The translations under genes were made by a program, and so were the position numbers. From IMG/VR virus record IMGVR_UViG_3300014059_000004: DNA of 64,000 nt; one strand, 5' to 3'. This DNA comes from a virus. The notes beneath the pieces are model-generated. The model was not told where the DNA came from. It was given only the letters and a program-made list of their open reading frames with translations, and made no database searches. Shown here piece by piece: positions 2,883 through 21,752 of the stretch; position 1 is the first letter of the stretch, and every line of letters starts with the position of its first letter.

Positions 2883-3569
2883 ATGGCTAGTAGTGCACAG
2901 TTAGATAGAAATATGATCAGTCTATGCCATATCGCTGATGTTCATTGGAGGTCTCAATCGAGACACGATGAATACAAAGAAGTTTTCCAAGCGCTGATCA
3001 ACGACGTCAAGCTAAAGAGCATTGAGCACGTCTTCGTTGGTGGCGATATCTTTCACACCAAGACAACTGGCATCAGCCCAGAATACATTGAACAACTTGT
3101 GTGGTGGTTGAACTCTATGGCTGAAGTAGCGGAAGTTCATCTTACGCTAGGAAACCATGATGGAAATCTTGTCAACATGTCGAGGCAAGATGCAGTTACG
3201 CCGATCGTTGCTGCCCTTAATAACCCAAGAGTTCATCTGTACAAGAAAAGCGGTTGCTATGAGTTTGCACCCGGATACGTGTTCTGCGTATTCAGCTTGT
3301 TTGATACTGACGGTTGGTCATCTGTTAAACCAATCGAGGGTAAGTTTAACATTGCATGCTACCACGGTCCAGTCTTTGGTGCAAAAACTGAATCTGATTG
3401 GTTGATTGAAGATGGATTGACTGTTGATTTCTTTGAAAATTACCAGCTGTGTTTGCTGGGTGATATTCACAAGACTCAATTTCTTGGTTACAGAGACGCT
3501 GAGTTGATCATCGATAAAGATGACTTGCACAAGTATCCGGGTGCTAAGATCATCGAGGAAATTAAATGA
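2883..3569 (+). CDS. Mre11/SbcD-family nuclease, phosphoesterase core (T4 gp47-like)
   Basis: Calcineurin-like motifs CHIADVHW (D.H), GGDIFH (GD..H), GNHD, CYHGP and LGDIHKT. Position upstream of the Rad50-like gene matches the T4 gp47/gp46 arrangement. Confidence 0.8.
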   Translation: MASSAQLDRNMISLCHIADVHWRSQSRHDEYKEVFQALINDVKLKSIEHVFVGGDIFHTKTTGISPEYIEQLVWWLNSMAEVAEVHLTLGNHDGNLVNMSRQDAVTPIVAALNNPRVHLYKKSGCYEFAPGYVFCVFSLFDTDGWSSVKPIEGKFNIACYHGPVFGAKTESDWLIEDGLTVDFFENYQLCLLGDIHKTQFLGYRDAELIIDKDDLHKYPGAKIIEEIK

Positions 3570-6151
3570 CCAAGCTAAAGATCAAAGTAAAGAACCCATG
3601 GATAGCCTACAGTGGGTCAACGTTGCAGCAGAATTATGCTGAATCGCTCGATCATGGCTACTTGCACTGGAAGATCCCTGCGTTGGGCGAGGGTCCGCAC
3701 TCTGTTGAGTACTGCCAATTGCCAAATCCAAAGCCGTTCGTCACGATTGATTGGACGGGCAACGTGTCTTCAACGATCAACGTAGCAAAAAGTTATCCTC
3801 GAGGATCAAGGTTTCGTATCAAGAGCACTGTTCACATCACGCAGCAAGATGTGCATGTTCTAACGACACAGCTGAAATCTGATTGTTCTGCTACCGAAGT
3901 AACGTTCAAGGCAGATCATGTTATCAGCAAAGATCAACTGACGAACACAGCATTCTCTATTGGTCATGCTGACCTTCGTAATCCAGATGTCATCCTTGGT
4001 TTGATCAAGAGCTTTCATTCTGCTACTAAATGCAAAGACGATACTTGGGAAAAGGTGAGCGAGTATGTCAAGTACTACTTGAACACTGTTTCTGCTAGCG
4101 AAGAAAATTTTCTACGCAACAGCAAATGGCGACTTCGAAACTTGAAATTTGATAATCTGTTCTCTTACGGTGAAGGCAACGAGCTTGACTTTGACAAGAT
4201 GAATGGCATCATTGGGATATTTGGAAGCAACAGGATTGGTAAGTCATCAATCGTTGGCAGCGTCATGTATTCGTTGTTTAATTCAACTGATCGTGGCAGC
4301 GTAAAGAACTTGCACGTTTGCAACATTCGTAAACCGTTTTGCTACAGCAGGGCGATTGTTAATGTCAGCGGTTGCGATTACATCTTTGAAAGACAGACGA
4401 CAAAGTATGAGAACAAGAAGGGCGTATCTCATGCTCCCACCGCCCTTAACGTTTTCAAGATGGAAGGTGGTGAAGCGATCGACCTTGGTGGTGAGCAACG
4501 AAATGATACTGAAAAAGTCATCAGAGGGTTGATCGGCACCGCCGACGATTTCCTGCTAACCAGCCTCTCTGCACAAGGAGAGATCAACCAGTTCATCGAT
4601 CATGGCTCTTCTCGTCGTCGACAAATCTTGTCTCGATTTCTTGATCTTGACATCTTTGATCGAATGTATGATTATGCAGCTCGAGACTTCAACGCTGTTA
4701 AGTCACAGCTCAAAGTATACCCTGACAAAGACTGGAATGCCGTTGCTTCTACGCTTAGAAATAAGATCACTGAGATTGACCTAGAAATAGAACGTATTTC
4801 ACATCAAGCGCAAGAAAAAGCTTTGCTGCTAGCAGAAGTTCGATCTGCACTAGCAAAACATAGCAATTTCACACCAGTCTCAGAGAGTCAAGTTGAGCAG
4901 CACAAGAAGAAAGTTGCTGCACTTGAAGCGCAATTTGCCTCTGCAACATCGATCGTTCAGGCGCTAAAAGCTAGCATAGCATCTTCAGAAGAGAAATCTG
5001 CAAAGATCTCCCTGTTGAAAGAAGAGAACGATCTAGTTGAGCTGAAGAAGAAGCTAGCTATGTTGTCATCTCTTGAATCTGATGTTTCAAATTTGAAGCA
5101 CATTGCTGATCGTGATGCAACGCTTCTGAAGCAGCAGCAACGTTCATTGAAGATACTTGATGAAGTACCTTGCGGTGATAAGTTTCCGAAGTGTAAGTTC
5201 ATCAAAGATGCGCATGATTTGAAGCTAAAGATCGATCCACAGAAAGAAAAACTAGCAAAGTCGATTGAGAAGCTTGAGAAAGCATCTGCTGAACTTAACA
5301 CGATGATGCAAGAAGACCTTGTCTCAAAGGTTGAAAAGTTGCAGCAATTGCATGATCTTCATGCAAAGCTACTTCTTGAATCAGAGAAGCAAAAAGTTGA
5401 TCTTGTGAAGAATGAATCTGCGGTAGCCGTGCTAGAGTCTGATCTTGCTGCAGGCAAGGCTAGATTGGTTGAACTAGAGAGGGCACTGAATAATCGGGAG
5501 AATGAAGAGGTTGTTTCCCTAAGAGCTAAAATAGAAGAATATTCTAAGGCTGCCTCGATGCTCGATAAACGCAAGCTTGATCTTGCCTCAGAAAGAGGAA
5601 GGATAATATCCGATGCTGAGAAGGCGTTGGAAGAGAAGAAGACTAAAGAGCAACTGCTTGATAAGATGAAGGTGTATGAGATGATCACGACCGCATTCTC
5701 TAAGAAGGGAATCCCAAGCGTGATATCAACATCTCAGCTTCCATTGATCAATGCTGAGATCCATAAGATTCTAGCAGGAATCGTAGATTTTACGATTGAA
5801 CTTGAGGTTGATGAAGAATCAGACTCAATGGATGTATACATCAACTACGGAGATTCAAAGAGAGTCATCGAGCTGGCTAGCGGCATGGAGAAGATGATCG
5901 GATCTATTGCAATCAGAGTTGCATTGATAAACATCTCTTCGTTGCCCAAGACTGACATGTTCATCATTGATGAAGGATTTGGTGCGTTGGATGATTCTAC
6001 TGTTGAAGCATGCAATCGTTTGCTCATCTCGTTGAAGCGTCACTTTAAGACCATCTTGGTCATCACTCACGTCGATGGGGTAAAAGATGCCGCTGACACG
6101 ATCCTAGAGATATCCAAAGTTGAAAAAGATTCTCGTGTTGTTTATACTTGA
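3566..6151 (+). CDS. Rad50/SbcC-family ATPase (T4 gp46-like) with an N-terminal extension resembling the Mre11 C-terminal region
   Basis: Walker A GIFGSNRIGKSSI. Long coiled-coil. CxxC hook-like CGDKFPKC. Walker B/D-loop MFIIDEGFGALD. H-loop VITHV. Start overlaps the upstream stop (ATGA). Confidence 0.85.
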   Translation: MTKLKIKVKNPWIAYSGSTLQQNYAESLDHGYLHWKIPALGEGPHSVEYCQLPNPKPFVTIDWTGNVSSTINVAKSYPRGSRFRIKSTVHITQQDVHVLTTQLKSDCSATEVTFKADHVISKDQLTNTAFSIGHADLRNPDVILGLIKSFHSATKCKDDTWEKVSEYVKYYLNTVSASEENFLRNSKWRLRNLKFDNLFSYGEGNELDFDKMNGIIGIFGSNRIGKSSIVGSVMYSLFNSTDRGSVKNLHVCNIRKPFCYSRAIVNVSGCDYIFERQTTKYENKKGVSHAPTALNVFKMEGGEAIDLGGEQRNDTEKVIRGLIGTADDFLLTSLSAQGEINQFIDHGSSRRRQILSRFLDLDIFDRMYDYAARDFNAVKSQLKVYPDKDWNAVASTLRNKITEIDLEIERISHQAQEKALLLAEVRSALAKHSNFTPVSESQVEQHKKKVAALEAQFASATSIVQALKASIASSEEKSAKISLLKEENDLVELKKKLAMLSSLESDVSNLKHIADRDATLLKQQQRSLKILDEVPCGDKFPKCKFIKDAHDLKLKIDPQKEKLAKSIEKLEKASAELNTMMQEDLVSKVEKLQQLHDLHAKLLLESEKQKVDLVKNESAVAVLESDLAAGKARLVELERALNNRENEEVVSLRAKIEEYSKAASMLDKRKLDLASERGRIISDAEKALEEKKTKEQLLDKMKVYEMITTAFSKKGIPSVISTSQLPLINAEIHKILAGIVDFTIELEVDEESDSMDVYINYGDSKRVIELASGMEKMIGSIAIRVALINISSLPKTDMFIIDEGFGALDDSTVEACNRLLISLKRHFKTILVITHVDGVKDAADTILEISKVEKDSRVVYT

Positions 6152-6453
6152 GCATGAAGAAGCCTTTCACAAAAGACAGGTTCATTGAAGCTCACCCTGC
6201 AGGATTTTTCATCATAACACCGCAGGATTACGAGGATCCTGTTCCGTTGAGCTGTCCAGTGTGCAGCAATCTTCTTCGCACTAGAGATGATGAAGAAGCT
6301 TACGTTGAGGTAAGCTGCTGCAATCATTGTGCATTGAAGTGGGCTCATCCACGCCGTGAGGCTTGGGCTGATGGATGGCGTCCAAGCCCATCTGATGTTA
6401 CCGCAGATAATTCCGAACGTTTGCCGATTGTAGTCGAGCTTAAGCTTCAGTAA
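6148..6453 (+). CDS. hypothetical small zinc-binding protein
   Basis: ORF overlaps the gp46-like stop. Cys cluster CPVCSNLL...CCNHC. Confidence 0.4.
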   Translation: MSMKKPFTKDRFIEAHPAGFFIITPQDYEDPVPLSCPVCSNLLRTRDDEEAYVEVSCCNHCALKWAHPRREAWADGWRPSPSDVTADNSERLPIVVELKLQ

Positions 6454-6485
6454 AGTTTCTCCATACTTAGCCTTGGAGAGTACAC

Positions 6486-6869
6486 ATGGCTGAAGAGAAG
6501 AAGATCGACTACAACGCGTTGGGTCAATCGATCGATACAACGTTTGGAAGATCATCGACGCCTAAAACTGCGTCATATTCTGTGAAGTTTTCGCTTGCTG
6601 GAAACACGATCACTGCGTCCTATGCAGCAATCGTTAACTTCGGCACAGAAAAAGAGATGATATTGATGAAGAGAGGTTACTCTGAAGAGAGCACCTCTGT
6701 CATCAATGCTGCATTGAAGTCAGTGAAAGCCAATTACAAGAAGTTGTCTGGTCAAACATTGTCGACTTCTGAAGTTAGCACGTCAGATTCTCTTGAGATA
6801 ATTGGGTTTAACGTTCACAACCCTAAGAGAACGGCGTACTATCGTAGGAAGACGACGTTTGAGATCTGA
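6486..6869 (+). CDS. hypothetical protein (position compatible with a small terminase subunit, unproven)
   Basis: ORF immediately upstream of the large terminase, with AGGAG-like GGAGAG before the ATG. No recognisable motif. Confidence 0.35.
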   Translation: MAEEKKIDYNALGQSIDTTFGRSSTPKTASYSVKFSLAGNTITASYAAIVNFGTEKEMILMKRGYSEESTSVINAALKSVKANYKKLSGQTLSTSEVSTSDSLEIIGFNVHNPKRTAYYRRKTTFEI

Positions 6870-6871
6870 AA

Positions 6872-8494
6872 ATGGCATCAGCTAGCAGCATTAACAACAG
6901 AGAACAGCAGATAAAAGAGATCATGAAGTGTGGCCGCGATCCGGTCTATTTCATGAAGAATTATGCAAAGATCCAGCACGCCACTCGCGGTTTGATCCCG
7001 TTTGAAACTTACCAGTTCCAAGATGATTGCATCAAGGCCTTTGAAGAGCATCGATTCAACATCATCTTGAAGTCTAGACAGTTGGGTTTGTCAACTGTCA
7101 CAGCTGCGTATTGCGTTTGGTTTGCAATCTTCAAGAAGGACAAGAACGTTCTCATCATTGCGACGAAGCTAAGCACGGCAATGAACTTCATCAAGAAAGT
7201 GAAGACAGTTCTTGACGGTCTTCCAAAGTGGCTTGTTCTCACGAAGTTCGCCCCAACGAAGCAGTCAATCCAATTTTCTAACGGTTCGAACATTACTGCA
7301 GTTCCAACATCGCCGGATGCTGGTCGTTCTGAAGCTCTTTCGTTGTTGATCGTTGATGAGGCTGCATTCATCAGAGAATTTGAAGATATCTGGACAGGTC
7401 TATCACCAACGATATCTACTGGTGGATCAGCTATCATCATCTCGACTCCTCATGGTGTTGGTGGTCAGTATTACAAGTTGTGGACAGACGCTGTTGCTTC
7501 AACGAACGAGTTCAATCCGATCAATTTGCCATGGTACGTTCATCCCGAACACGATCAAGCATGGTTTGATAAAGAGACTAGAAACCTATCAAGAAGAAAG
7601 ATTGCGCAAGAGTTCTTGTGTTCGTTCGAATCTTCTGGTGACACGTTTTTGCAACCTGAAGAGCTAGATTACTTGAGGGAGTGCATAGAACAACCAATCA
7701 GAAAAGAAGGACCAGCTGCTGGTGTTTGGATCTGGGGCAACCCAGTGTCTAACAGGAAATACATCATCTCAGCAGACGTTGCTCGAGGCGATGCAACTGA
7801 CTATTCTACGTTCCACGTTATTGACGTTGAAGAGTCTGAAGTTGTTGCAGAGTACATGGGTAAGATACCACCCGATAAATTTGCTGATCTTTTGATGACA
7901 TACGGCCGGCAATACAACGAGGCCGTGTTGATACCAGAGAAGAACACGTTTGGTTACTTTACTTGTGTAAAGCTTCGCGATGCTGGGTACAAGCGATTGT
8001 TCTACAAGAACACAGTCGGTGATCTTTTTAGTTACGTGTCAAAAGATCCAGATGCAGTTCCAGGCTTTGATACGCAAGCCAGTTCAAGGACTCAAATCCT
8101 TGCCAAGCTAGAAGAAACGATCAGAAACAGAGCTATCAAGGTATACTCGCAGAGATTGTTTGATCAGCTGCAAGCGTTCATCTGGAATGGCTCTAAGGCA
8201 ATGGCTTCCAAAGATAGTCATGATGACTTGGTTATCAGCATGGCGATTGGAACTTGGTTTGCTACTGGAGCCACTACTGTCCATGAAGACGGGAAAGAAC
8301 ATGCAGTTGCTATGCTAGCAGCTACTGGTGTTTCGAAGAGAGACATTAGCTCCACGTTCAATCAGATCAGTGCCGTTCAACCAGTGATGAATCCTAACAT
8401 GAGAGGTTTTACGCCGCAAAATGTTCATAAGCCCAGGAATGCATCAGAAGTTCGGCATGCTGACGTTAGTGACTTCAGCTGGCTTATGCGGTAA
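6872..8494 (+). CDS. terminase large subunit (T4 gp17-like)
   Basis: ATPase Walker B LLIVDEAAFI. C-terminal nuclease-domain acidic residues (ISADVARGD..., HDDLVISMA). Located before the portal. Confidence 0.85.
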   Translation: MASASSINNREQQIKEIMKCGRDPVYFMKNYAKIQHATRGLIPFETYQFQDDCIKAFEEHRFNIILKSRQLGLSTVTAAYCVWFAIFKKDKNVLIIATKLSTAMNFIKKVKTVLDGLPKWLVLTKFAPTKQSIQFSNGSNITAVPTSPDAGRSEALSLLIVDEAAFIREFEDIWTGLSPTISTGGSAIIISTPHGVGGQYYKLWTDAVASTNEFNPINLPWYVHPEHDQAWFDKETRNLSRRKIAQEFLCSFESSGDTFLQPEELDYLRECIEQPIRKEGPAAGVWIWGNPVSNRKYIISADVARGDATDYSTFHVIDVEESEVVAEYMGKIPPDKFADLLMTYGRQYNEAVLIPEKNTFGYFTCVKLRDAGYKRLFYKNTVGDLFSYVSKDPDAVPGFDTQASSRTQILAKLEETIRNRAIKVYSQRLFDQLQAFIWNGSKAMASKDSHDDLVISMAIGTWFATGATTVHEDGKEHAVAMLAATGVSKRDISSTFNQISAVQPVMNPNMRGFTPQNVHKPRNASEVRHADVSDFSWLMR

Positions 8495-8524
8495 CGAATT
8501 CAATACTTAAGGTGCAAGCAGGTT

Positions 8525-11500
8525 ATGACGATGCAAAAAAAGATCACAATGCCACAATTGAAGAAGATCATTGGAGAAGAACTTCGTCTTTCTTTGAAAG
8601 AAGCTGTCGATCATGCATCGATCAGAGAAGTGGTTAACGATGCAAGCAAGTTGCTTGCAGCTGTTGAAGCGTTCAAGAAGAGTGCCAACGGTAGCATGAT
8701 GAATGCGTTGACTCCTCAAATTTCCGACATTGAGAAGGTTCTAGAGGATATGGTTTCTACGCCTGGCTCATACGTCGAGAAGCAGAAGACCAAGCCTCAG
8801 AAAGTTTCTTTGAAGCCTGCCAAGAGTGGTAAGACGCTATTATCGCTCTTAAGCTTGTTCAAAGTAGTAGTATTAGAACTGCTCCAACAGAATGAAGGAG
8901 CTAACAACATGGCAAAGAAACAAACGAAGCAAAGTCTTTTTAAGCGTCTCACCAGGCTGTTTAAGTCTGGTCCAGTCATAAAGAAGAAGATCAGGAATGC
9001 TGATACTTCTATCGCAGTTGCAGATAAGACTAAGTCGTCTGGAACGTTGCTGTTTCAAAAGTCGTTGGCACCAACGTACGCAACGATCACAGCAAATGCG
9101 TACAACTTGTCAGAACGCCTGATGAGGTATCAAGACTACCAAGAAATGGAGATGTGCATTTCTGGTGACACAAAAATCGCTGTTCCGAACGGTTACAAAA
9201 CAATAAGAGAACTAGCTGAAGAGTGTGAGAATGATCTAGAAAAAACGTTCATTGTTTATTCGTACGATCACAACAAGGGTCAAATTGTTCCTGCACTTGG
9301 AAAACAAGCTAGACAAACATCTGTTGATCATGCATGGAAAGTAACATTTGACAGCGGGTTGTCTATTACTACTAGCGCTGGTCATAGATTGATGCTTCGT
9401 GATGGTACGTATCGAAAACTTGAAGAACTTCAAGTTGGAGATTCGATGATGCCATTTTATCGAAAAGACTTGTTTTCGAATGAAAATAATGAAAATTCGT
9501 CAAGTGGCGGTTATTCATGGATTTACACCATGGATAGTACGCACAAAAGCTGGACTAGAGAACATGTTCTAATTGCAGAATGGGTGTCTGGTCGACGATT
9601 GACAAAAGATGAATGTGTGCATCACATAAACTTTGTTAGATCAGACAACAGGCCTGAAAATCTGTTGATCATGAATAAGTTCGAACACAGTTCTTACCAT
9701 GCAAAAATCAATAACGAAAAAAAGTGGCACGTTAACAACAAAGAATGGATTGACAAATTTAAGAAAACACATTCTGAATGGATGAAAGTTAACAATCCCG
9801 CCGAAAGAAGAGATGTAACTTTTGGACGAATTCTAGAAACGTGCGAAAAGATCGGATTCAATCAATCTGCGGTATGTTCTGCACTTGATGTAAGTGTAAC
9901 GGTTATTCAAAATCGTTTGAAGAAACACGGTTTTTCTAGTTTCGAATTGTTTGCAAAAACATACTGCAATGATTGGAAAAATAGCGGTTGGAATAATTCT
10001 GGTGAGAATAACCCACGCTTTGATAAAACCTTGACGTTTGCATGCATTTGTAACGCATACACAAATGACATGTCAGCAAAGAAACTAGCTGACATGTTGG
10101 GTACTACAGTTACAAAGATCATGAATCGAATTAGAACTGCCGGCTACAAAAATTATTCTGATTTTTCAGCTCAGTTCACTAACCATAAAATTGAATCAAT
10201 CGAGTACGTTGGTGTCATTCCTCTGTATGATCTTACTGTTGATGGCTACAAAAATTTTGCAACTGATTCGGTTGTTTCACACAATACTCCGGAAATAAGC
10301 TCGGCGCTTGACATCTATGCTGATGAAACTGTCGCGGCAGATGAAAAAGGTCGTGCTCTTCACATCTACTCAGACAATGAAAGAGTAAAAGAGATCCTTG
10401 AAGATCTTTTTTATGGTACGTTGAATCTCGAATTTAACCTTCGTTCTTGGGCAAGAAATCTTGTGAAATACGGTGATTTCTTTCTCTACAACGACGTTTC
10501 AGATGATTACGGTGTTGTTTCAGCGTTTCCAATTCCAGTCAATGAAATTGAGCGTGAAGAGAACTATGACAGAGAAGATCCGTTTGCCGTTCGTTACAGG
10601 TGGGTCACTCTTGGCAATCGAATCCTAGAGAATTGGGAAGTTTCTCACTTCCGTCTCTTGGGTAACGACATGTTCTTGCCATACGGTTCTTCAGTCATTG
10701 AACCTGCGCGCCGGATTTGGCGACAGCTTATTTTGATTGAAGACGCAATGCTTGTGTACAGAGTCGTGAGAGCGCCTGAGCGCCGCGTCTTTTACATTGA
10801 CGTGGGTAACATCCCTGCAAGTGAAGTAGAGCTATACGTCGAGCAGCAAAGAAAGAAGCTTAGGACGAATCAAGTCATCGACTCGAACACTGGGCGAGTT
10901 GACTTGCGCTATAATCCAATGTCTGTTGATGAGGATTATCTCATGCCGGTCCGCGGTGCAGAATCTGGAACGAAGATAGAAACACTTGCAGGCGGACAGA
11001 ACACTGCAGCAGTTGAAGACGTAGCATACATCCAGAAAAAGCTATTTGCGGCGCTGAAAATTCCTCGTGCATACTTGGGTTACGATGAGGCGCTATGCCT
11101 GGATCAGTCAACTTCTATCCCACTTTACGATGGTCGGACATTGACAATAGAAGAAATAGCGACTGAGTTTAACGCTGGAAAACAGAACTGGACATACACG
11201 ATCGATTCATCAGGCAAACATGTTCCTGGAAAAATTATCGATGCATGGAAGACAAAAGACGTTACTGAACTTTATCATGTGACTCTTGATAATGGTCATG
11301 TTGTCAAGTGCACAGCAAATCATCCATTCATGCTTAGAGATGGCACGTATCGTCGAGCAGATGAATTGAAGAAGGATGACAGTCTGATGCCAGTTTATAG
11401 AAAGTTTTCGTCAAAGTCTGATGGTGATTTTCAGAATGGCTATGAAAAAATTCTGAACAATAATACTGGACGTTGGGAATATACACATCGTCTAGCAAAC

Positions 11501-13318
11501 GAAGCTGGACTAGTTACTGATCATGCATCACGTGATCTTGAGAGATCATATGTAATTCATCATATCGATCATGATAAACGAAATAACAATCCAACAAATT
11601 TGATCAAGATGGGCAAGCGTGCTCATATTTTGCATCATTCTAGCGGTGCACGTGCTAATTTGTTGTCAAACACTGCTCGCGTCGCTCTTCGTGAAACAAT
11701 GAAGACGCAAAAGTACATCGATGATCATCTTAAAGGCGTTCAGAACAGCTGGGATAATTCAATCACGAGAAGAAATTCAATTGCTGTATCAAATTCACAA
11801 CAAAAACGTGTGAATATTTCAATCGAATCATTTAATGAATTGGCACTTAAATGTAGTGCAAGATCAGAATTTTATAAGCGTCTTAAGAGCGATTTGAACG
11901 TTAGTCGTACGTGCTTTGTTAACAACTTGTCTAGATCAACAATTGACGTTCGAACGTGGTTGTCATCTCATTTTGGTGTTATTAAGCATCGTGGAAATAG
12001 TAAGAAACTTAACTTCAATTTGCAAGACTTGATTGATGAATGCGTTAAACACAAAATTCGTAGCATAACTGAGTGGAGGCGTTGTAAGGATGTTTCGGTT
12101 AGTGGGCATGTTGTTAAACGAGTTTTGAATAACGCAGGGTACAAAGATTTTGCTAGCTTTGCAAAAACGTTGAATCATCAAATTGTTAACGTCGAACTAG
12201 TAAAACTAGACGAACCGCGAGCCGTCTATGATTTGACGATTGAGGGAAATCATAATTTTGCCATTGAAGCTTCAGAGTCAGAATGTAGCGATGACAGCTT
12301 GTCAAGTATGATTGTTGTTCACAACAGTTCAAAGGCAACGCTAGCCCAAGAAGATATCAGATTTTCCAGGACAATCTCAGTAATCCAGAAAACAATCATC
12401 TCTGAGCTTAATAAGCTAGCGATCATTCACCTATATGCTCATGGTTTTGACGGAGAGGATCTGCAGAATTTTACTCTTCGTCTTTCGAATCCTTCTACTG
12501 TTGCACAGCAGCAGAAGCTTGAGTTGTGGAGAGCAAAGTTTGAGATCGCTGGTTCTGCACCAGAAGGTTTTGTTGACAAGAACTTCATAAGAAAAGAAAT
12601 TTGGGGTCTTAACGAAGAGCAGTGCAAAGCTATCGATGACGCTCGTTTGAAAGATAAGATCGTTGATTCAACGATTGAGGGTGCTGCAGCTGGAGAAGCC
12701 GGAGCTGGCGGAGGTGATGCTGGCGTTGATGATCTATTTGGCGGCGACAACGGCGGAGAAGCAACTGGTGGAGAGGAAGCTGGGGGCGGAGGCGGAGAAG
12801 AAACACCACCTGAAGAAAATGCAGGCGAGGAACCAGAAGAAGAGGTTGAACCAGACGTTGAGCTTCTAACTTCAGCAGATTCTTTTGATGATGAAGTCTT
12901 TGGGTTGAAGGTTGGAAATTCTGTCAGAGACGTGGAAGTACCTGTGAAAGCGCAGAAGCAGCTTGACAGAGTGCTATACAATCGTGGTCGCTTGAGGACT
13001 CACGGAGCATCAAAGACGTTCATGCCAGATCTTGAGAAGATGACGTCAAATGATGAGCACGAATCGTTGAACGATCCTTTCGATTCTAATTGGATGAAAT
13101 CTGTGGTTAGCAATCCATTCGGTGAGAGCAGACAACACGAAAGACCAATAATGACGTCAGATATGATGTCTATTCTTCGAAATTGGTCTGTTACCAAGCG
13201 AGTCAATCGTGCCACCGCCACAGCGCAAAAGGTGATCACAGAATCGAATGATGACCTTGATGTGACTGTTGAATTCGACGAAGTATTTAATGATGACGAA
13301 CCAGGAGAGCAAGAGTAA
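8525..13318 (+). CDS. portal protein (T4 gp20-like) interrupted by two inteins; exteins about 810 aa
   Basis: Extein segments LIEDAMLVYRVVRAPERRVFYIDVGNIPA and ...DEDYLMPVRGAESGTKIETLAGG...AALKIPRAYLGYDE match T4 gp20 ([28 protein letters not shown] / ...[23 protein letters not shown]...). An alternative strong start lies at 8909 (AGGAG N9 ATG, MAKKQTKQSLFKRL, cf. gp20 N-terminus). Confidence 0.85.
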   Translation: MTMQKKITMPQLKKIIGEELRLSLKEAVDHASIREVVNDASKLLAAVEAFKKSANGSMMNALTPQISDIEKVLEDMVSTPGSYVEKQKTKPQKVSLKPAKSGKTLLSLLSLFKVVVLELLQQNEGANNMAKKQTKQSLFKRLTRLFKSGPVIKKKIRNADTSIAVADKTKSSGTLLFQKSLAPTYATITANAYNLSERLMRYQDYQEMEMCISGDTKIAVPNGYKTIRELAEECENDLEKTFIVYSYDHNKGQIVPALGKQARQTSVDHAWKVTFDSGLSITTSAGHRLMLRDGTYRKLEELQVGDSMMPFYRKDLFSNENNENSSSGGYSWIYTMDSTHKSWTREHVLIAEWVSGRRLTKDECVHHINFVRSDNRPENLLIMNKFEHSSYHAKINNEKKWHVNNKEWIDKFKKTHSEWMKVNNPAERRDVTFGRILETCEKIGFNQSAVCSALDVSVTVIQNRLKKHGFSSFELFAKTYCNDWKNSGWNNSGENNPRFDKTLTFACICNAYTNDMSAKKLADMLGTTVTKIMNRIRTAGYKNYSDFSAQFTNHKIESIEYVGVIPLYDLTVDGYKNFATDSVVSHNTPEISSALDIYADETVAADEKGRALHIYSDNERVKEILEDLFYGTLNLEFNLRSWARNLVKYGDFFLYNDVSDDYGVVSAFPIPVNEIEREENYDREDPFAVRYRWVTLGNRILENWEVSHFRLLGNDMFLPYGSSVIEPARRIWRQLILIEDAMLVYRVVRAPERRVFYIDVGNIPASEVELYVEQQRKKLRTNQVIDSNTGRVDLRYNPMSVDEDYLMPVRGAESGTKIETLAGGQNTAAVEDVAYIQKKLFAALKIPRAYLGYDEALCLDQSTSIPLYDGRTLTIEEIATEFNAGKQNWTYTIDSSGKHVPGKIIDAWKTKDVTELYHVTLDNGHVVKCTANHPFMLRDGTYRRADELKKDDSLMPVYRKFSSKSDGDFQNGYEKILNNNTGRWEYTHRLANEAGLVTDHASRDLERSYVIHHIDHDKRNNNPTNLIKMGKRAHILHHSSGARANLLSNTARVALRETMKTQKYIDDHLKGVQNSWDNSITRRNSIAVSNSQQKRVNISIESFNELALKCSARSEFYKRLKSDLNVSRTCFVNNLSRSTIDVRTWLSSHFGVIKHRGNSKKLNFNLQDLIDECVKHKIRSITEWRRCKDVSVSGHVVKRVLNNAGYKDFASFAKTLNHQIVNVELVKLDEPRAVYDLTIEGNHNFAIEASESECSDDSLSSMIVVHNSSKATLAQEDIRFSRTISVIQKTIISELNKLAIIHLYAHGFDGEDLQNFTLRLSNPSTVAQQQKLELWRAKFEIAGSAPEGFVDKNFIRKEIWGLNEEQCKAIDDARLKDKIVDSTIEGAAAGEAGAGGGDAGVDDLFGGDNGGEATGGEEAGGGGGEETPPEENAGEEPEEEVEPDVELLTSADSFDDEVFGLKVGNSVRDVEVPVKAQKQLDRVLYNRGRLRTHGASKTFMPDLEKMTSNDEHESLNDPFDSNWMKSVVSNPFGESRQHERPIMTSDMMSILRNWSVTKRVNRATATAQKVITESNDDLDVTVEFDEVFNDDEPGEQE
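9155..10285 (+). mobile_element. intein 1 (377 aa) with an HNH endonuclease domain, in the portal gene
   Basis: Starts at Cys in block A CISGDTKIAV; block B TSAGHRLM. Ends VYDLTVDGYKNFATDSVVSHN followed by the +1 Thr. Internal HNH motif HHINFVRSDNRPENL...H. In-frame length 1131 nt. Confidence 0.8.
11096..12325 (+). mobile_element. intein 2 (410 aa) with an HNH endonuclease domain, paralogous to intein 1
   Basis: Starts at Cys in CLDQSTSIPL; block B TANHPFML. Ends VYDLTIEGNHNFAI...IVVHN followed by the +1 Ser. HNH motif HHIDHDKRNNNPTNL...H. Shares LRDGTYR(K/R)..EL..(G/D)DS(M/L)MP.YRK with intein 1. Confidence 0.75.
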
Positions 13319-13319
13319 C

Positions 13320-14189
13320 ATGTCCAAGCAGTTGACACATAAGAAGAAGAGAAATTCAGGTTTGCTCTATGAATTTCTGATTCGAACGATCTCGCGCTCT
13401 CTCGTCGAAGGCGATCAAAAGAAGTCAGCGACAGCACTAAAGATTTTGAAGCGCAGCTTCAAGCCTGGCACTGAACTGTACAAGGAGTTCAGGCTCATCA
13501 ATTCGCTCGTTCGTACGACAGTTAGTTCGGAACATGTTGCTGCATCGATCATAAATGAAGCTAAAGTAGCTGCTGGTTCGTACGATTTGAAAGCTCTTGA
13601 CAAAGAGAAGTCCATCCTGATCAAGAACATCAATCATCTTATCAATGATGAAAATTTTTATGATCAACAAGTTAACGAGTACAAAGTTTACGCTACAGTG
13701 CAGACGTTGATCAACGAATGGCGATCATCTGACAAAGACATCGGAAAGCTCGCTGAGTACGAAGATCAGCTAATGAAATGGTTGACAACGGAAAAGAAAG
13801 AGCAAGAAGATAGCGTCATCAACGAGGAATCGCCGGGCACTGCCCGGCTGATGATGAAGGTCATGACCAAGAAGTTGAACGAGAAGTACTCGGGCGTCTT
13901 GAATGCTGACCAGAAGTCTTTGATGAAAGCTTACATCTTCTCAACAGCATCCAGCGATCCAACGGTTATTCAGAAGAAGCTAGCAGAGATCAAGGATTCT
14001 CTTCTTCAGAAGATCGATGCTTACTCAAAGATTGAAAAGAACAAGCTTATAAGCGAAAAGTTGTCGAATACGACGCAGCAATTGCTTACAGAAGATCTAA
14101 GCAACGTTGATGACTCTACGGTCACGCGCTTCATGCTTTACGCTAAGCTAGGATCAGAACTTGACCAAGAAGATGGGGATGAAAGATGA
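13320..14189 (+). CDS. hypothetical prohead core/scaffold-associated protein
   Basis: The ATG at 13320 is 1 nt after the portal stop, with GGAG upstream. Lies between portal and prohead protease, as do T4 gp67/gp68. Confidence 0.45.
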   Translation: MSKQLTHKKKRNSGLLYEFLIRTISRSLVEGDQKKSATALKILKRSFKPGTELYKEFRLINSLVRTTVSSEHVAASIINEAKVAAGSYDLKALDKEKSILIKNINHLINDENFYDQQVNEYKVYATVQTLINEWRSSDKDIGKLAEYEDQLMKWLTTEKKEQEDSVINEESPGTARLMMKVMTKKLNEKYSGVLNADQKSLMKAYIFSTASSDPTVIQKKLAEIKDSLLQKIDAYSKIEKNKLISEKLSNTTQQLLTEDLSNVDDSTVTRFMLYAKLGSELDQEDGDER

Positions 14190-14809
14190 AAGAGCAACGG
14201 TTGCTAAGCACGTACGACGTGCATGATTATGAAGTGATCACCGAAGTCAGCGACAAGCCGACAGGCCCTGTCAAGAAGATCATGATGAAGGGAATCCTTC
14301 AGAAAGCTGATACGCTAAATCAGAACGGTAGAATCTACCCAAAGTACGTTCTCGAGCGTGAAGTAAGAAACTACCAAAAGTTCATCCTCGAGAATAGGGC
14401 TCTAGGAGAACTAGACCACCCAGATTCATCAGTTGTTAACTTGAAGAACGTTTCTCACATCGTTAGAGAAGCTTACATGGAAGATGGTACTGTGTACGGA
14501 ACAGTTGAGATCCTTGACACGCCGTCTGGAAAAGTTTTGCAATCACTAGTTGAGTCAAAGGTGAAGCTTGGAATCTCCTCGCGAGGCGTCGGTTCAACTG
14601 CAAAGAAGGGTGATTATTACGAGGTTCAAGACGACTTTCAGCTTATCTGCTGGGACTATGTATCGGAACCATCAACTCCCGGAGCTTTCATGATTCCTGA
14701 AGGTAAAAAGATAACGCAAGCTGAACTAAATAAGGTCTTTAATAGATCTGATCGAATTGACAGGATCTTGAACGAAATTCTCAAGAAGTTATGCCAACTG
14801 GGTCTATAA
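14186..14809 (+). CDS. prohead core protease (T4 gp21-like)
   Basis: ATGA overlap with the upstream gene. NGRIYP...LGELDHPDSS...GTVEILDTPSGK...KLGISSRGVGS resembles the conserved His/Ser blocks of prohead proteases. Position between portal and scaffold/MCP. Confidence 0.7.
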   Translation: MKEQRLLSTYDVHDYEVITEVSDKPTGPVKKIMMKGILQKADTLNQNGRIYPKYVLEREVRNYQKFILENRALGELDHPDSSVVNLKNVSHIVREAYMEDGTVYGTVEILDTPSGKVLQSLVESKVKLGISSRGVGSTAKKGDYYEVQDDFQLICWDYVSEPSTPGAFMIPEGKKITQAELNKVFNRSDRIDRILNEILKKLCQLGL

Positions 14810-15585
14810 AGTTTATTTCTGCTAATTGTAAGCGATGTGGCACATCATTTAGTTATCGTTACAAAGCTAGCAAACGATCTCAAGTATTTTGCAGTCGGTC
14901 TTGTTCGAACAAAGAAGTGAAGCGAAATCGTTCTGAAAAAGATCTATTGTCTTCTTGGACTAAGACAATTGGTTCAGAAGCTGCAGATGAAAAACTTCAA
15001 CGTTTGAAGTTGTCAAAGAGTGAATCTGCAACAAGAAATAACACTGGCAAGAATCATTCAGACATCACAAAGAGAAAGATTTCTGAATCTTGCCAAGGAA
15101 ACAAAAACGTTTTGAAGGGACGAACATATCTTGAGTATTATGGTCCGGATCGAGCAAAACAATTGTCTGAAGAGCATTCAAGAAAATTGAAAGAAGGTTA
15201 TGCTTCTGGAAGAATCAAGCCTTCTGTTCGAACGAAATCAGCACCAGCATACAAGAATGTCAAGCTAAGAAGCATGCTTGAACTCAGAGTTATTCGTTTT
15301 CTAGAAGAGAGCGAAAATTTGTGCTTTAATGATTCATTGTTTTACGAGCATCCGGATGCTCATGTAACTTGGCATGATTCCACGGGTGCTGGTCACACTT
15401 ACATTCCAGATCTTTACGTACCAAGTGCAGAACTTGTGATTGAGGTTAAGCCTCAACGATTTGTTGACAGTCCGACTGAAGAAATGATGAAGAAGAAAGA
15501 TGCAGTTCTTCGTGAAGGATATAAATTTGAATACTACACAGAAAGAACGATAACATGTCGCTTAACAATCCAAAAGGCGGCCTAG
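14791..15585 (+). CDS. free-standing homing endonuclease (Zn-ribbon + NUMOD3-like repeats + PD-(D/E)XK nuclease)
   Basis: CKRCG...CSRSC zinc ribbon. HSDITKRKISES and EEHSRKLKEGYASG are NUMOD3-like. C-terminal YIPDLYVP..LVIEVKP is PD-(D/E)XK. Confidence 0.6.
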   Translation: MPTGSIKFISANCKRCGTSFSYRYKASKRSQVFCSRSCSNKEVKRNRSEKDLLSSWTKTIGSEAADEKLQRLKLSKSESATRNNTGKNHSDITKRKISESCQGNKNVLKGRTYLEYYGPDRAKQLSEEHSRKLKEGYASGRIKPSVRTKSAPAYKNVKLRSMLELRVIRFLEESENLCFNDSLFYEHPDAHVTWHDSTGAGHTYIPDLYVPSAELVIEVKPQRFVDSPTEEMMKKKDAVLREGYKFEYYTERTITCRLTIQKAA

Positions 15586-15986
15586 GATACGCTGCTGAAT
15601 TTCAATCATCGGCGCTTCCATGGGTAACAAGCAGCCAAGTTCCCGTTGTAACGTCTGGAATTCTACGTTGTGACTTTCCTAAAGTCAGTAGGTTCGTAAC
15701 TGTTTTGAATAATGCTAGTGCTTCAGCCGGTCAAGAAGTTCGAATCGGATTCACTAGGAATGGAATGACAGCTGGTTACTACAGCGTTCTAGCAGGTGGT
15801 CAGCAGACGACGATGGAAGTTAGAGTCACTAGCCTCTACATTGCTGGTGACACCAGCAACAATCTTCGAGTTTCTGTTCTTGCTGGTCTGACTAACATTG
15901 ATAAGTCAATGATGCCTCAACTGTCAGGAACACTTGATTCGGGCGACGTTGGTTGGTCTGGCGTCGGTTTACAAGAGGAAATTTAA
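15555..15986 (+). CDS. hypothetical protein
   Basis: ORF in the head module. TAATG overlap with def. Confidence 0.4.
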   Translation: MSLNNPKGGLGYAAEFQSSALPWVTSSQVPVVTSGILRCDFPKVSRFVTVLNNASASAGQEVRIGFTRNGMTAGYYSVLAGGQQTTMEVRVTSLYIAGDTSNNLRVSVLAGLTNIDKSMMPQLSGTLDSGDVGWSGVGLQEEI

Positions 15987-16480
15987 TGGAACTAGTCAAA
16001 ATACCTGATGATCGTTTGCGGTTCTTGTCCGGACCGGTTGACAAGTTCGATCGTTCGCTTCAAGAGCTATCAACTAGCATGAAATTGGTGATGGCTGTCA
16101 ATGGCGGCGTCGGCCTAGCTGCACCTCAAGTTGGTGTCAACAAGAGGGTCATAGTTGTCAACGTAGCGCCTGGTAGCAGCACACCAGACTTGATCACCAT
16201 GGTGAATCCAGTCATAGTGTACTCTTCAAGCTCGCAAGAAGCCGGCGAAGAGGGTTGCTTGTCTGTTCCGGGTGAACGATGCACCGTGACACGCGCAAAA
16301 TCTGTTGAAGTCGAATACAGAGAACCGAATGGGTTCTTCAAGAAGAAGATCTTCACTGGCTACGTTGCTAGAATTGTGCAGCACGAGATAGACCATTTGG
16401 ACGGTGTCTTGATGATCGATCGCTCAGCAACCCCTCTAGAAGCACACACGAGGGCACAAGAATATATTTCGGCTCACTGA
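15986..16480 (+). CDS. def: peptide deformylase
   Basis: All three PDF motifs are present: GVGLAAPQVG, EGCLSVPG and QHEIDHLDG. Length 164 aa. AGGA RBS 8 nt upstream of the ATG. Confidence 0.9.
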   Translation: MELVKIPDDRLRFLSGPVDKFDRSLQELSTSMKLVMAVNGGVGLAAPQVGVNKRVIVVNVAPGSSTPDLITMVNPVIVYSSSSQEAGEEGCLSVPGERCTVTRAKSVEVEYREPNGFFKKKIFTGYVARIVQHEIDHLDGVLMIDRSATPLEAHTRAQEYISAH

Positions 16481-19841: not shown

Positions 19842-21752
19842 ATGGAGAATAAAATGAAGTTTTCACTTGATCAGCTAACACAAGGTATTCGCGAAAAGCA
19901 CGTTGGTGCGGAGCGAGCACGTCTTGTTGAGAAGTGGGCGCGCACCGGTCTTCTGAGGAACCTGGATGGCAATCGTCGCGAGATGATGTCCCAGCTTCTC
20001 GAGAACCAGGCGGCTCAGGTTCTTAAGGAGAACGTTTCTCTTTCCACTGGCGGCGGCGCAGTTACGTCGTCCGGTCAGATCCAGGGCTTCTCGAACATTG
20101 CATTCCCAATCGTTCGTCGAGTCTTCGGTGGCCTTGTTGCGAACGAGCTCGTCTCGATCCAGCCAATGTCGCTGCCATCTGGTCTCATCTTCTACCTCGA
20201 TTACACCTACGGCTCGAACGTCGGCGGCGAGGCAGGCGCAAGCTTGAGCAACACCTCAACGTTTGAGACGTACCAGCGCGGTCAGTCGATCTACAACAAC
20301 CCACCAGGCAAGGGCATTCAGTCCGGTTCTCTTGCGACGGGTGGTATGTACGATCTTGTCAACGTCGGTTACTCGAAGGTTCACTCTTCGTCGCTCGGCG
20401 TCTCCGGATCGAACCTCGATCTCGGTGCATGGACGGGTGCTTCGCAAGCATGGACCGTCGGTGGTGCAGTTCGCAGCGACACGGACCTTTCTGGTTCGAA
20501 CGCCCGCTTCTTGAACTTCGATCCACAGATCGAGAACGCACTGGCACAGGGCGACCTGGACCTCACGTTCTTGCACCTCTCGGTGTCCGCACTGCAGACT
20601 GCAATTCCAAAGGGTGACTTCTTGGCACCAGAGCAGATCGCAATCTTCGGATTCACTGCTGCGAACAACGTTTCTGAGTGGGGTGAGTCATACCAGTCGG
20701 GCAAGGGTCTCTACAACCTCCGCCGCCTTAACAAGCGCGGTGATTGGAACGGCTCAACGTTCACGCTGAACCCGCTGAACGGAACGTACATCCAGATGGT
20801 TCTGAAGCTTACCAACGGTGGATCAGTTCCAACGATGGGTACGGCTGTCCAGAAGGTCTCGATGGCAATCACTGATGCACTCACCGTTGATTCAACGTCA
20901 GGTGCTACGCTGACTGTCCCATCCTTCGAGTCTGACTTTGGTTCATCGCCAACGCCAGCAATCCCAGAGATTGACATCAAGATCGAGGCGATCTCGATCA
21001 CTGCAACGACCCGCAAGCTCCGCGCTCGCTGGTCCCCAGAGCTTGCGCAGGATCTCAATGCGTACCACTCGATGGACGCTGAGGTTGAGCTGACGAGCAT
21101 CCTTTCTGAGAACATTGCCCTTGAGATTGATCGCGAGATCCTCAACGACCTTGTCACTCAGGCAAACGGTGCAAACTACTACTGGAGCCGAGCTCCAGGC
21201 AAGTTTGTTAACAAGGTCACCGGCGACAGGCAGAACCTCGCGAGCTCGCTCTCGATCGGTCCTCAGTTCACTGGTACGGTTCGCGAGTGGTATGAGACTC
21301 TCATCGAGACGATCATCGACGTGGCGAACACGATCCACCGCAAGACGCTTCGCGGATCAGCTAACTTCATGGTCACTGGACCAGATGTTTGCACGATCCT
21401 GGAGAGCTCGGTGCTCTACAAGCCAAAGTACACGCTCGACAGCGAAGGCCAAGTTGGTTCTCCGTTCACGGTCGGTGCAGAGGCGATCGGTACTGTTTCC
21501 AACAGGTTCACTGTCTACAAGGATCCTTACTTCCCAAGGAACAAGGTTCTTGTCGGCTACAAGGGCGGTTCCTACCTTGAGACTGGATACGTATACGCTC
21601 CGTACGTTCCACTCATCGTGACCCCAACGCTGTTCGCACCTGAAGACTTCACGCCACGTAAGGGTGTCATGACCCGTTACGGCAAGAAGATGGTCAGGAC
21701 GGACTTCTATGGCACTGTGACGGTCATGGACATGAATGTGATTTTACGTTAG
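19842..21752 (+). CDS. major capsid protein (T4 gp23-like)
   Basis: FPIVRRVFGGLVANELVSIQPMSLPSGLIFYLDYTYG resembles gp23 AVMGMVRRAIPNLIAFDICGVQPMNSPTGQVFALRAVYG. RWSPELAQDLNAYHSMDAEVELTSILSENIALEIDREI resembles AAYSIELAQDLRAVHGMDADAELSGILATEIMLEINREV. The C-terminal GYKGG...YVYAPYVPL block also matches. An alternative start at 19854 has a GGAG RBS. Confidence 0.9.
   Translation: MENKMKFSLDQLTQGIREKHVGAERARLVEKWARTGLLRNLDGNRREMMSQLLENQAAQVLKENVSLSTGGGAVTSSGQIQGFSNIAFPIVRRVFGGLVANELVSIQPMSLPSGLIFYLDYTYGSNVGGEAGASLSNTSTFETYQRGQSIYNNPPGKGIQSGSLATGGMYDLVNVGYSKVHSSSLGVSGSNLDLGAWTGASQAWTVGGAVRSDTDLSGSNARFLNFDPQIENALAQGDLDLTFLHLSVSALQTAIPKGDFLAPEQIAIFGFTAANNVSEWGESYQSGKGLYNLRRLNKRGDWNGSTFTLNPLNGTYIQMVLKLTNGGSVPTMGTAVQKVSMAITDALTVDSTSGATLTVPSFESDFGSSPTPAIPEIDIKIEAISITATTRKLRARWSPELAQDLNAYHSMDAEVELTSILSENIALEIDREILNDLVTQANGANYYWSRAPGKFVNKVTGDRQNLASSLSIGPQFTGTVREWYETLIETIIDVANTIHRKTLRGSANFMVTGPDVCTILESSVLYKPKYTLDSEGQVGSPFTVGAEAIGTVSNRFTVYKDPYFPRNKVLVGYKGGSYLETGYVYAPYVPLIVTPTLFAPEDFTPRKGVMTRYGKKMVRTDFYGTVTVMDMNVILR

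Follow-up and report, generated by a model that had tools for sequence, protein, structure and literature searches.

Inteins have been described before in phage portal genes: six portals of mycobacteriophage cluster C1 carry them (Kelley et al. 2016, PMC5050341), and the portal inteins of actinobacteriophages fall into five polyphyletic groups (bioRxiv 10.1101/2025.01.02.630785). Inteins whose HNH endonuclease lies in frame were first described by Dalgaard et al. in 1997; they are regarded as non-canonical and are reported mainly from phages. The actinobacteriophage preprint (bioRxiv 10.1101/2025.01.02.630785) calls non-canonical endonuclease architectures rare. In Campylobacter phage IBB_35 the genes for PhoH and ribonucleotide reductase hold two inteins each (PMC3322345). 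Here we consider the portal gene within the long plus-strand open reading frame (ORF) at 8525..13318 of IMG/VR record IMGVR_UViG_3300014059_000004; "the window" denotes the whole stretch of 64,000 nucleotides that was analysed. We believe it very likely that this gene, which belongs to an uncultivated T4-like phage, contains two independently acquired class 1 inteins of one large HNH-intein family.

The window shares with the mycobacteriophage and actinobacteriophage cases the host gene (a phage portal), polyphyletic insertion groups and a spread ascribed to homing among co-infecting phages. The difference is that nearly all inteins in those surveys are of the LAGLIDADG type and lie in portals that are not of the gp20 type (PF07230), whereas the window has two in-frame HNH_3 inteins in a gp20-type portal. 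As in the known HNH inteins, a Hint splicing domain is interrupted by HNH instead of LAGLIDADG; unlike them, the family found here counts many members (an exhaustive HMMER search with intein 2 gave 503 cluster representatives at E <= 1e-30), has an extra helical region resembling a helix-turn-helix and is concentrated in portals. The likeness to IBB_35 lies in several non-allelic inteins within one essential phage gene, and the host gene and the intein family are other ones. The window inteins thus add to kinds that are known, since portal inteins and in-frame HNH inteins have both been described; the opinion of the first-pass annotation of this DNA that portal inteins are rare disagrees with the publications on mycobacteriophages and actinobacteriophages (PMC5050341; bioRxiv 10.1101/2025.01.02.630785).

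The two inserts and their nuclease motifs are as follows (a slash marks a splice junction; aa, amino acids).

9155..10285, plus strand: intein 1 (site a), 377 aa, class 1, QEMEM/CISGDTKI...SVVSHN/TPEI; supported by Pfam, NCBIfam and the model.
9617..9700, plus strand: HNH nuclease motif of intein 1, VHHINFVRSDNRPENLLIMNKFEHSSYH; HNH_3 at 30.0 bits, invariant residues.
11096..12325, plus strand: intein 2 (site e), 410 aa, class 1, YDEAL/CLDQSTSI...MIVVHN/SSKATL; supported by Pfam, NCBIfam and the empty site.
11555..11638, plus strand: HNH nuclease motif of intein 2, IHHIDHDKRNNNPTNLIKMGKRAHILHH; HNH_3 at 25.1 bits, family-invariant His/Asn kept.

The first codon of intein 1 and the last codon of intein 2 coincide exactly with the limits (9155-12325) given in the first-pass annotation, which had proposed two in-frame inteins here and a Pfam search for Intein_splicing, HNH and Hint domains; both inserts match. 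Intein_splicing (PF14890) scores 51.1 bits (1.7e-13) for intein 1 and 81.3 bits (8.3e-23) for intein 2 at a cutoff of 35.8. The NCBIfam profiles are likewise exceeded by intein 1 and intein 2, with 37.3 and 43.4 for intein_Nterm (TIGR01445, cutoff 24.5) and 21.0 and 20.4 for intein_Cterm (TIGR01443, cutoff 15.6). The proposal that both carry HNH rather than LAGLIDADG also agrees with the profiles, the cutoff of HNH_3 (PF13392) being 24.8 bits; H156, H157, N165, N169, L170 and H178 are invariant across 19 family members. The catalytic set is complete in both inteins (Cys1, block-B His, block-F Asp, His-Asn and +1 Thr/Ser). Intein 1 has Cys1, SAGH in block B (9374-9397), LYDLTV in block F (10223-10261), terminal SHN and +1 Thr; intein 2 has Cys1, TANH (11312-11335), VYDLTI (12224-12262), terminal VHN and +1 Ser. 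The block B pattern TxxH, which had been ascribed to both, is therefore correct for intein 2 and incorrect for intein 1. Judged by their domains and residues, both inserts are class 1 inteins with an HNH_3 endonuclease domain. Assignment to class 3 was considered and rejected, since both have Cys1 and Asp at position F:4.

The Hint fold is present in intein 1 according to a structural model and in intein 2 according to sequence matches. A PDB sequence search with intein 1 gave no match at E <= 0.01; intein 2 matches chains of the DnaE and DnaB inteins at E of about 1e-4. The AlphaFold2 model of intein 1, built from a 19-sequence alignment, has a mean pLDDT (predicted local distance difference test) of 85.2, and its top Foldseek matches in the PDB are the Ssp DnaB and Npu DnaB inteins (probability 1.0). 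In this model of the whole intein, residues 1-106 and 345-377 form the Hint beta-core; the HNH motif lies in a beta-beta-alpha element at residues 153-190 (strands 153-157 and 170-174, then helix 175-190), and the region 196-340 is helical with a weak HTH_50 match. The guanine-cytosine (GC) content is 0.37 in intein 1 and 0.38 in intein 2, compared with 0.45 in the exteins and 0.46 in the whole window.

The search with the predicted spliced portal returned 7899 homologs, the top 120 of which are 79-87% identical to it and 513-807 aa long. Intein-free portals make up 119 of these 120 (P0001 among them), and P0067 alone has an intein domain, at a different site; that is, about 1% of the closest portal homologs carry inteins. 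The spliced sequence aligns gap-free at both junctions with intein-free homologs that are 79-86% identical to it, eight of the top 120 having been aligned, and with the corresponding proteins from Microcystis phage Mel-JY01 and Flavobacterium phage immuto, which bears out the earlier statement that removing both inteins leaves a contiguous gp20-like portal. The most informative relative is contig L007 (IMGVR_UViG_3300033121_002020), which has 98.2-98.9% DNA identity to positions 3155-16443 of the window. It contains intein 1 with 100% amino acid identity, all five nucleotide differences being synonymous, and is exactly without intein 2: its LGYDEAL/SSKATLAQ equals the predicted spliced product, and its DNA at the empty site e is GGTTATGATGAAGCATTGTCTTCAAAG. 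Because exact empty-site alleles were found, a native portal domain and a bacterial intein-like (BIL) domain were both rejected as candidates.

Intein 2 could also have been joined to the window by the assembler from reads of another phage strain. The DNA comes from a metagenome, the insert is missing from the sibling contig, and the searches of viral contigs, metagenome contigs and proteins gave no second copy of the exact intein 2 sequence. This sits poorly with an insert that keeps the reading frame exactly, occupies a site where more than ten other contigs have homologous inteins, and has both flanks continuous with a 99%-identical backbone; in addition, contig L042 independently shows the architecture with inteins at sites a and e. 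We find an artefact hardly credible.

The first-pass annotation noted extended similarity between the two inteins and explained it by duplication of one of them into the second site. Homology between the two is evident (BLASTP E = 4e-19), with an overall identity of 26% and one of 32% in the N-domain, and the stretch quoted in support is identical at 18 of 28 positions; this stretch, though, is the family-wide consensus NHRLMLRDGTYxxIxxLxxGDSMMPFYRK of the HNH inteins and implies no special link between the pair. Each intein is far closer to others at its own site. Intein 1 has relatives of 45-63% identity in about 40 contigs of IMG/VR and in a dozen proteins of the databases, each of them at site a in the context ...EME[YFM]/...SHN/T[PA]EI...; intein 2 is 39-44% identical to the site-e inteins of other portals, homologous inteins occupying this site in more than ten other contigs. 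In a neighbour-joining tree (100 bootstraps) of 74 distinct inteins, each taken over its first ~185 residues, the sequences group by insertion site, as is expected for site-specific homing. The N-domain identity to the nearest site-mates is 69% for intein 1 and 61% for intein 2. The shared architecture (Hint-N, HNH, a helical region resembling a DNA-binding one, Hint-C) and the location in one gene are what speaks for intein 2 (or intein 1) having arisen by duplication within the portal gene of this phage lineage. Such a copy, if recent, would be near-identical to its source, and the pair is far from that; L007, ~99% identical to the window, has the identical intein 1 and no intein 2, and non-portal inteins fall between the two clades (P0141 and P0136, the latter with a deaminase-domain host). 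Since site-mates are closer, the quoted similarity is a family consensus and L007 is without intein 2, a recent intragenic duplication is ruled out on these sequences, and we consider the duplication account as a whole extremely improbable.

An older relationship is a different matter, and an ancient spread of the intein family between portal sites is possible from the same comparison. In its stronger form this explanation, compatible with independent acquisition in the window, states that the family moved ectopically among at least six portal sites and that the a and e lineages are ancient paralogs born in portals. Inteins of the family do occupy sites a0, a, b, c0, d and e and a further site in P0152; portals account for 115 of the 149 best new matches to intein 2, and the c0 and d inteins form one group in the tree. 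Yet the family also occurs in non-portal hosts, some interleaved with the portal clades, and the deep nodes are weakly supported (65% for clade a, 12% for d+c0), so that we draw no order of site colonisation and hold birth of both lineages in portals to be rather unlikely.

Site e bears a mark in the flanking DNA. The background divergence between the window and L007 is 0.88% (64 differences in 7280 nucleotides, nt); the following tract differs from it.

10435..11095, plus strand: tract of raised divergence relative to L007, almost entirely synonymous; 26 differences in 661 nt.

The divergence here is 3.9% (Poisson P = 7e-10), and all differences but one are synonymous. At the junction itself 7 of 18 nt differ over five consecutive codons, all synonymously (binomial P = 1e-10): the window reads TAC GAT GAG GCG CTA/AGT and L007 reads TAT GAT GAA GCA TTG/TCT. 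In the 413 nt after the first C-extein codon there are 0 differences. The tract looks like a co-conversion or recombination footprint and fits gene conversion accompanying homing or removal of the intein. Both signs of mobility that were looked for, namely the absence of intein 2 from the ~99%-identical L007 and a divergence tract centred on the junction, are found. Taking the explanation as a whole, it is highly probable from this comparison that intein 2 entered the window lineage, or disappeared from its sister lineage, very recently.

The direction of this change may be the reverse of a gain: the ancestor would have had both inteins, and the L007 lineage would have lost intein 2 by recombination with an intein-free allele. 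A precise empty site and a divergence tract are equally expected from loss by gene conversion, and intein-free alleles dominate the close relatives (119 of the top 120). Against this, the junction codons GAA GCA TTG of L007 are also present in the distant empty allele L021, a weak hint that L007 represents the older state; the evidence against loss is nowhere decisive, and we regard it as a tenable, if not a probable, course of events.

Several points weigh against the reading of two independently acquired class 1 inteins with a recent gain or loss of the second. The HNH_3 match of intein 2 barely passes its cutoff, and block B of intein 1 has Ser in place of the usual Thr. A vote over 11 outgroup portals (at most 75% DNA identity) on gain versus loss came out at 117 to 99, too even to be informative. 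A close donor of intein 2 was sought in IMG/VR, in metagenome contigs of the Joint Genome Institute (JGI) and among 5.8 billion proteins, and the best match is 43-44% identical. The sampled alleles bearing intein 2 read DELL at the junction and the window reads DEAL; because of this difference, the donor of the flanking tract is absent from the alleles compared. Finally, splicing and endonuclease activity are predictions from the sequence.

The last point would equally suit the view that one or both inserts are decayed relics, the gene being a pseudogene or the endonuclease dead, and contigs L005 and L006 do have in-frame stops in their portals. In the window, on the other hand, the ORF is open throughout, the splicing and HNH residues are intact, the portal differences from L007 are synonymous with one exception, and this is the sole portal gene in a complete T4-like head module; moreover, an unspliced insert in the tunnel loop should make the portal non-functional. 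Decay is accordingly rated as very unlikely. The stops mentioned are at 7789 (TGA) in L005 and 1816 (TAA) in L006, at conserved Arg and Tyr positions of intein-bearing portals in two unrelated metagenome contigs; sequencing errors, pseudogenes and recoding are all conceivable.

Starting from the observed domain architecture, the intact catalytic residues, the exact empty sites, the presence or absence between ~99%-identical genomes and the footprint, we infer splicing, DNA cleavage and its site specificity, and propose the following course for the two acquired inteins. The portal gene would be translated as a 1469-aa precursor. Each intein would then excise itself by an acyl shift at Cys1 and transesterification to the +1 residue (Thr for intein 1, Ser for intein 2), after which the terminal Asn would cyclise with the assistance of the penultimate His; the products would be the 682-aa portal and free inteins of 43 kDa (intein 1) and 47 kDa (intein 2). 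A free intein would act as an HNH homing endonuclease: in a co-infecting relative whose portal allele is free of the intein, it would cleave its own site, and mending of the break with the intein-bearing allele as template would insert the intein together with some flanking donor sequence. Intein 1 is common to the sister lineage; intein 2 would have been gained recently, or lost by the sister, through such recombination.

The position of intein 2 in the portal structure is relevant to this proposal. Site e aligns to F390/D391 of T4 gp20, within the tunnel loop, which lines the DNA channel; in T4 this loop comprises residues 374-398, and its deletion blocks completion of packaging (PMC4493910). 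Twelve unspliced 47-kDa inserts would be hard to reconcile with a working channel. Because intein 2 lies in the tunnel loop, we infer that splicing occurs before assembly, and it would have to precede portal function. Site a is at about position 12 of the Portal_T4 profile, directly before the conserved DIYAD motif; its alignment to T4 falls short of significance. Insertion into the tunnel loop occurs in two registers one codon apart, DE.L/C...HN/SSK and DE.L(S/G)/C...N/SK, in which L006, L037, L046-48, L050-51 and L053 are separated from the window, L042, L049, L052 and P0140.

The host gene is a T4 gp20-type portal (PF07230). The first-pass annotation took the entire ORF as a portal of 1597 aa; this is the correct length of the ORF, which matches Portal_T4 as a whole at 1.7e-63, but the portal precursor is 1469 aa long and the first 128 codons correspond to a separate gene. 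The remaining parts of the ORF are listed below.

8525..8908, plus strand: small ORF that precedes the portal and is fused to it in frame, outside the portal proper; homology to a gene of contig L004.
8895..8911, plus strand: likely ribosome-binding site AAGGAG (8895-8900) and portal ATG (8909-8911); sequence reading and homolog starts.
8909..9154, plus strand: portal N-extein, 82 aa, ending ...YQDYQEMEM; alignment with homologs.
10286..11095, plus strand: middle extein, 270 aa, the wing/stem/clip core of the portal, to ...AYLGYDEAL; Portal_T4 and structures 3JA7/6UZC.
12326..13318, plus strand: C-extein, 330 aa and TAA stop, starting SSKATLAQEDIRF; correspondence to T4 gp20.

In the close relative L004, codons 1-128 have a homologous counterpart, a separate 114-aa gene located between terL and the portal gene; relative to L004, a 2-nt gap deletes the stop codon of the small gene and brings it in frame with the portal. 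The identical fusion is present in L007, and for this reason a sequencing error was rejected as its source; judging by the two contigs, the fusion is a feature of the lineage and not a read error. AAGGAG is 8 nt upstream of ATG 8909, and the portal homologs all begin with MA(K/N)K..., which in the window is the MAKKQ encoded from this ATG. The true portal start is thus likely to be ATG 8909 rather than 8525; from it, the precursor has 1469 aa (167 kDa) and the predicted spliced portal 682 aa (77 kDa).

The profile search with the spliced portal matches the structures 3JA7, 6UZC and 9LU6 at about 1e-34. The head module is a complete T4-like one, with this as its sole portal gene and the order terL, portal, scaffold-like gene, gp21-type (S77) protease and gp23-type capsid protein. 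Agreement with T4 gp20 (3JA7, 6UZC; Sun et al. 2015, PMC4493910) is seen in the matches of the spliced extein to Portal_T4 and to the structures and in the gene order. The differences are that T4 gp20 has no inteins, that the window portal has a long acidic Gly/Glu-rich tail, and that only about residues 222-471 align significantly. The C-extein corresponds to the bent helix alpha8 and the crown of T4 gp20, followed by the acidic tail. In this tail (~12745-12800 of the window) a 3-nt indel and a cluster of substitutions relative to L007 form the sole non-synonymous hot spot of the portal gene. A blastn comparison of the portal region with 50,697 phage genomes gave a single match of 93 nt, and by this measure the region therefore has no close cultured relative.

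The uncultured huge phage LR756508.1 (484 kb) also has a gp20-type portal with several inteins, including an HNH intein at practically the same tunnel-loop site that is 27% identical to intein 2; the portals are 38-49% identical over the aligned extein segments. It differs from the window in having three inteins (the HNH one and two mini-inteins elsewhere), none of them at site a. The mini-inteins are at LPYGK/S and WKQL/T, and the gene upstream of the portal contains an intein with LAGLIDADG-like motifs, as judged by eye; the stretches concerned are 901-2682 and 2764-6924 of L001, the contig of this phage.

Among the 149 best new representatives found with intein 2, the 115 gp20-type portals contain one (8 portals), two (47), three (47), four (10), five (2) or six (1) inteins of the family; the ranking favours multi-copy proteins, so these counts among the best 149 are not frequencies. 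The two homologous inteins in one portal, which had been called unusual, are thus shared in kind by most of this set, 107 of the 115 portals holding two to six, and in metagenome data such portals are numerous. The same a+e pair as in the window is seen in L042, and the portals of L046-48, L033 and L049 have three inteins each. Our literature search found no description of multi-intein gp20-type portals. The non-portal hosts of the family include DNA polymerase A, ribonucleotide reductase (P0143), GyrA (P0146), the deaminase-domain protein P0136 and others.

The extremes of the family were recorded as separate observations. L037 and L039 (IMGVR_UViG_3300035701_000417 and 3300031707_000100) have a 2484-aa portal ORF in which sites a, b, c0, d and e each hold an intein, five in all; P0152 (2818 aa) is a complete portal with six, and the family-A DNA polymerase P0215 likewise contains six members of this HNH family. 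To our knowledge, the highest number published for a single gene is four. In L006 (frame 1), L023, L030, L033, L037, L049, L053, P0147 and P0152, the first residue of HNH inteins at sites c0 and d is Pro (PVHKDT..., PVRRGT...) and not Cys or Ser. In every Pro1 intein, Cys replaces the Asp of block F (VYCME/VYCMTV, the slash here separating variants), and most are without the penultimate His; the last residue of some site-d inteins is Gln, not Asn. The combination of Pro1 with a block-F Cys, confined in these comparisons to c0 and d of related portals, suggests a class-3-like splicing mechanism.

Further inserts and mobile-type genes are found beside the portal. In L007 the prohead protease gene contains a 358-aa in-frame insert (9799-11496 of L007, ELDHPDS/CVPTGTEI...VCWTGN/SVVNLKNV), which maps to about 14427 of the window, in the protease gene at 14186-14809, and from which the window is free. 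In Pfam this insert scores below threshold for both Intein_splicing (E = 3e-3) and LAGLIDADG_3 (E = 1e-3); from its sequence, it is probably an intein. The two ~99%-identical genomes therefore each hold one insert that the other lacks. After the protease gene, and slightly overlapping it, lies a 264-aa ORF (14791-15585, plus strand; GC 0.36-0.38) with a NUMOD3 motif and DUF7487, which is also found in L007 and looks like a free-standing gene of the homing-endonuclease type. The major capsid ORF (19842-21752, plus strand) has 636 aa, and its best Gp23 stretch covers residues 364-625 only.

For annotation, the value of these results is that the real portal is the 682-aa spliced product and not a 1597-aa protein. 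The window and L007 constitute a natural pair, with the portal site-e intein in the former and a probable protease intein in its sibling, and the pair offers a concrete target sequence for an HNH intein endonuclease. It also lends itself to studies of how a portal copes, until splicing, with 47 kDa of inserted protein in the tunnel loop. The wider family, with up to six inteins per portal, is a possible source of new orthogonal inteins, and it demonstrates that inteins can heavily colonise genes for phage structural proteins. We tentatively suggest, without claiming that the balance favours it, that among known host gene families the one most densely occupied by inteins may be the gp20-type portals of this uncultivated phage group, with at least seven sites and up to six inteins per gene from one HNH family that would still be homing in nature and that includes a Pro1 class-3-like sub-lineage; the window would be a snapshot of it, with one intein that L007 shares, one newly gained or lost, and a conversion tract at the tunnel loop.

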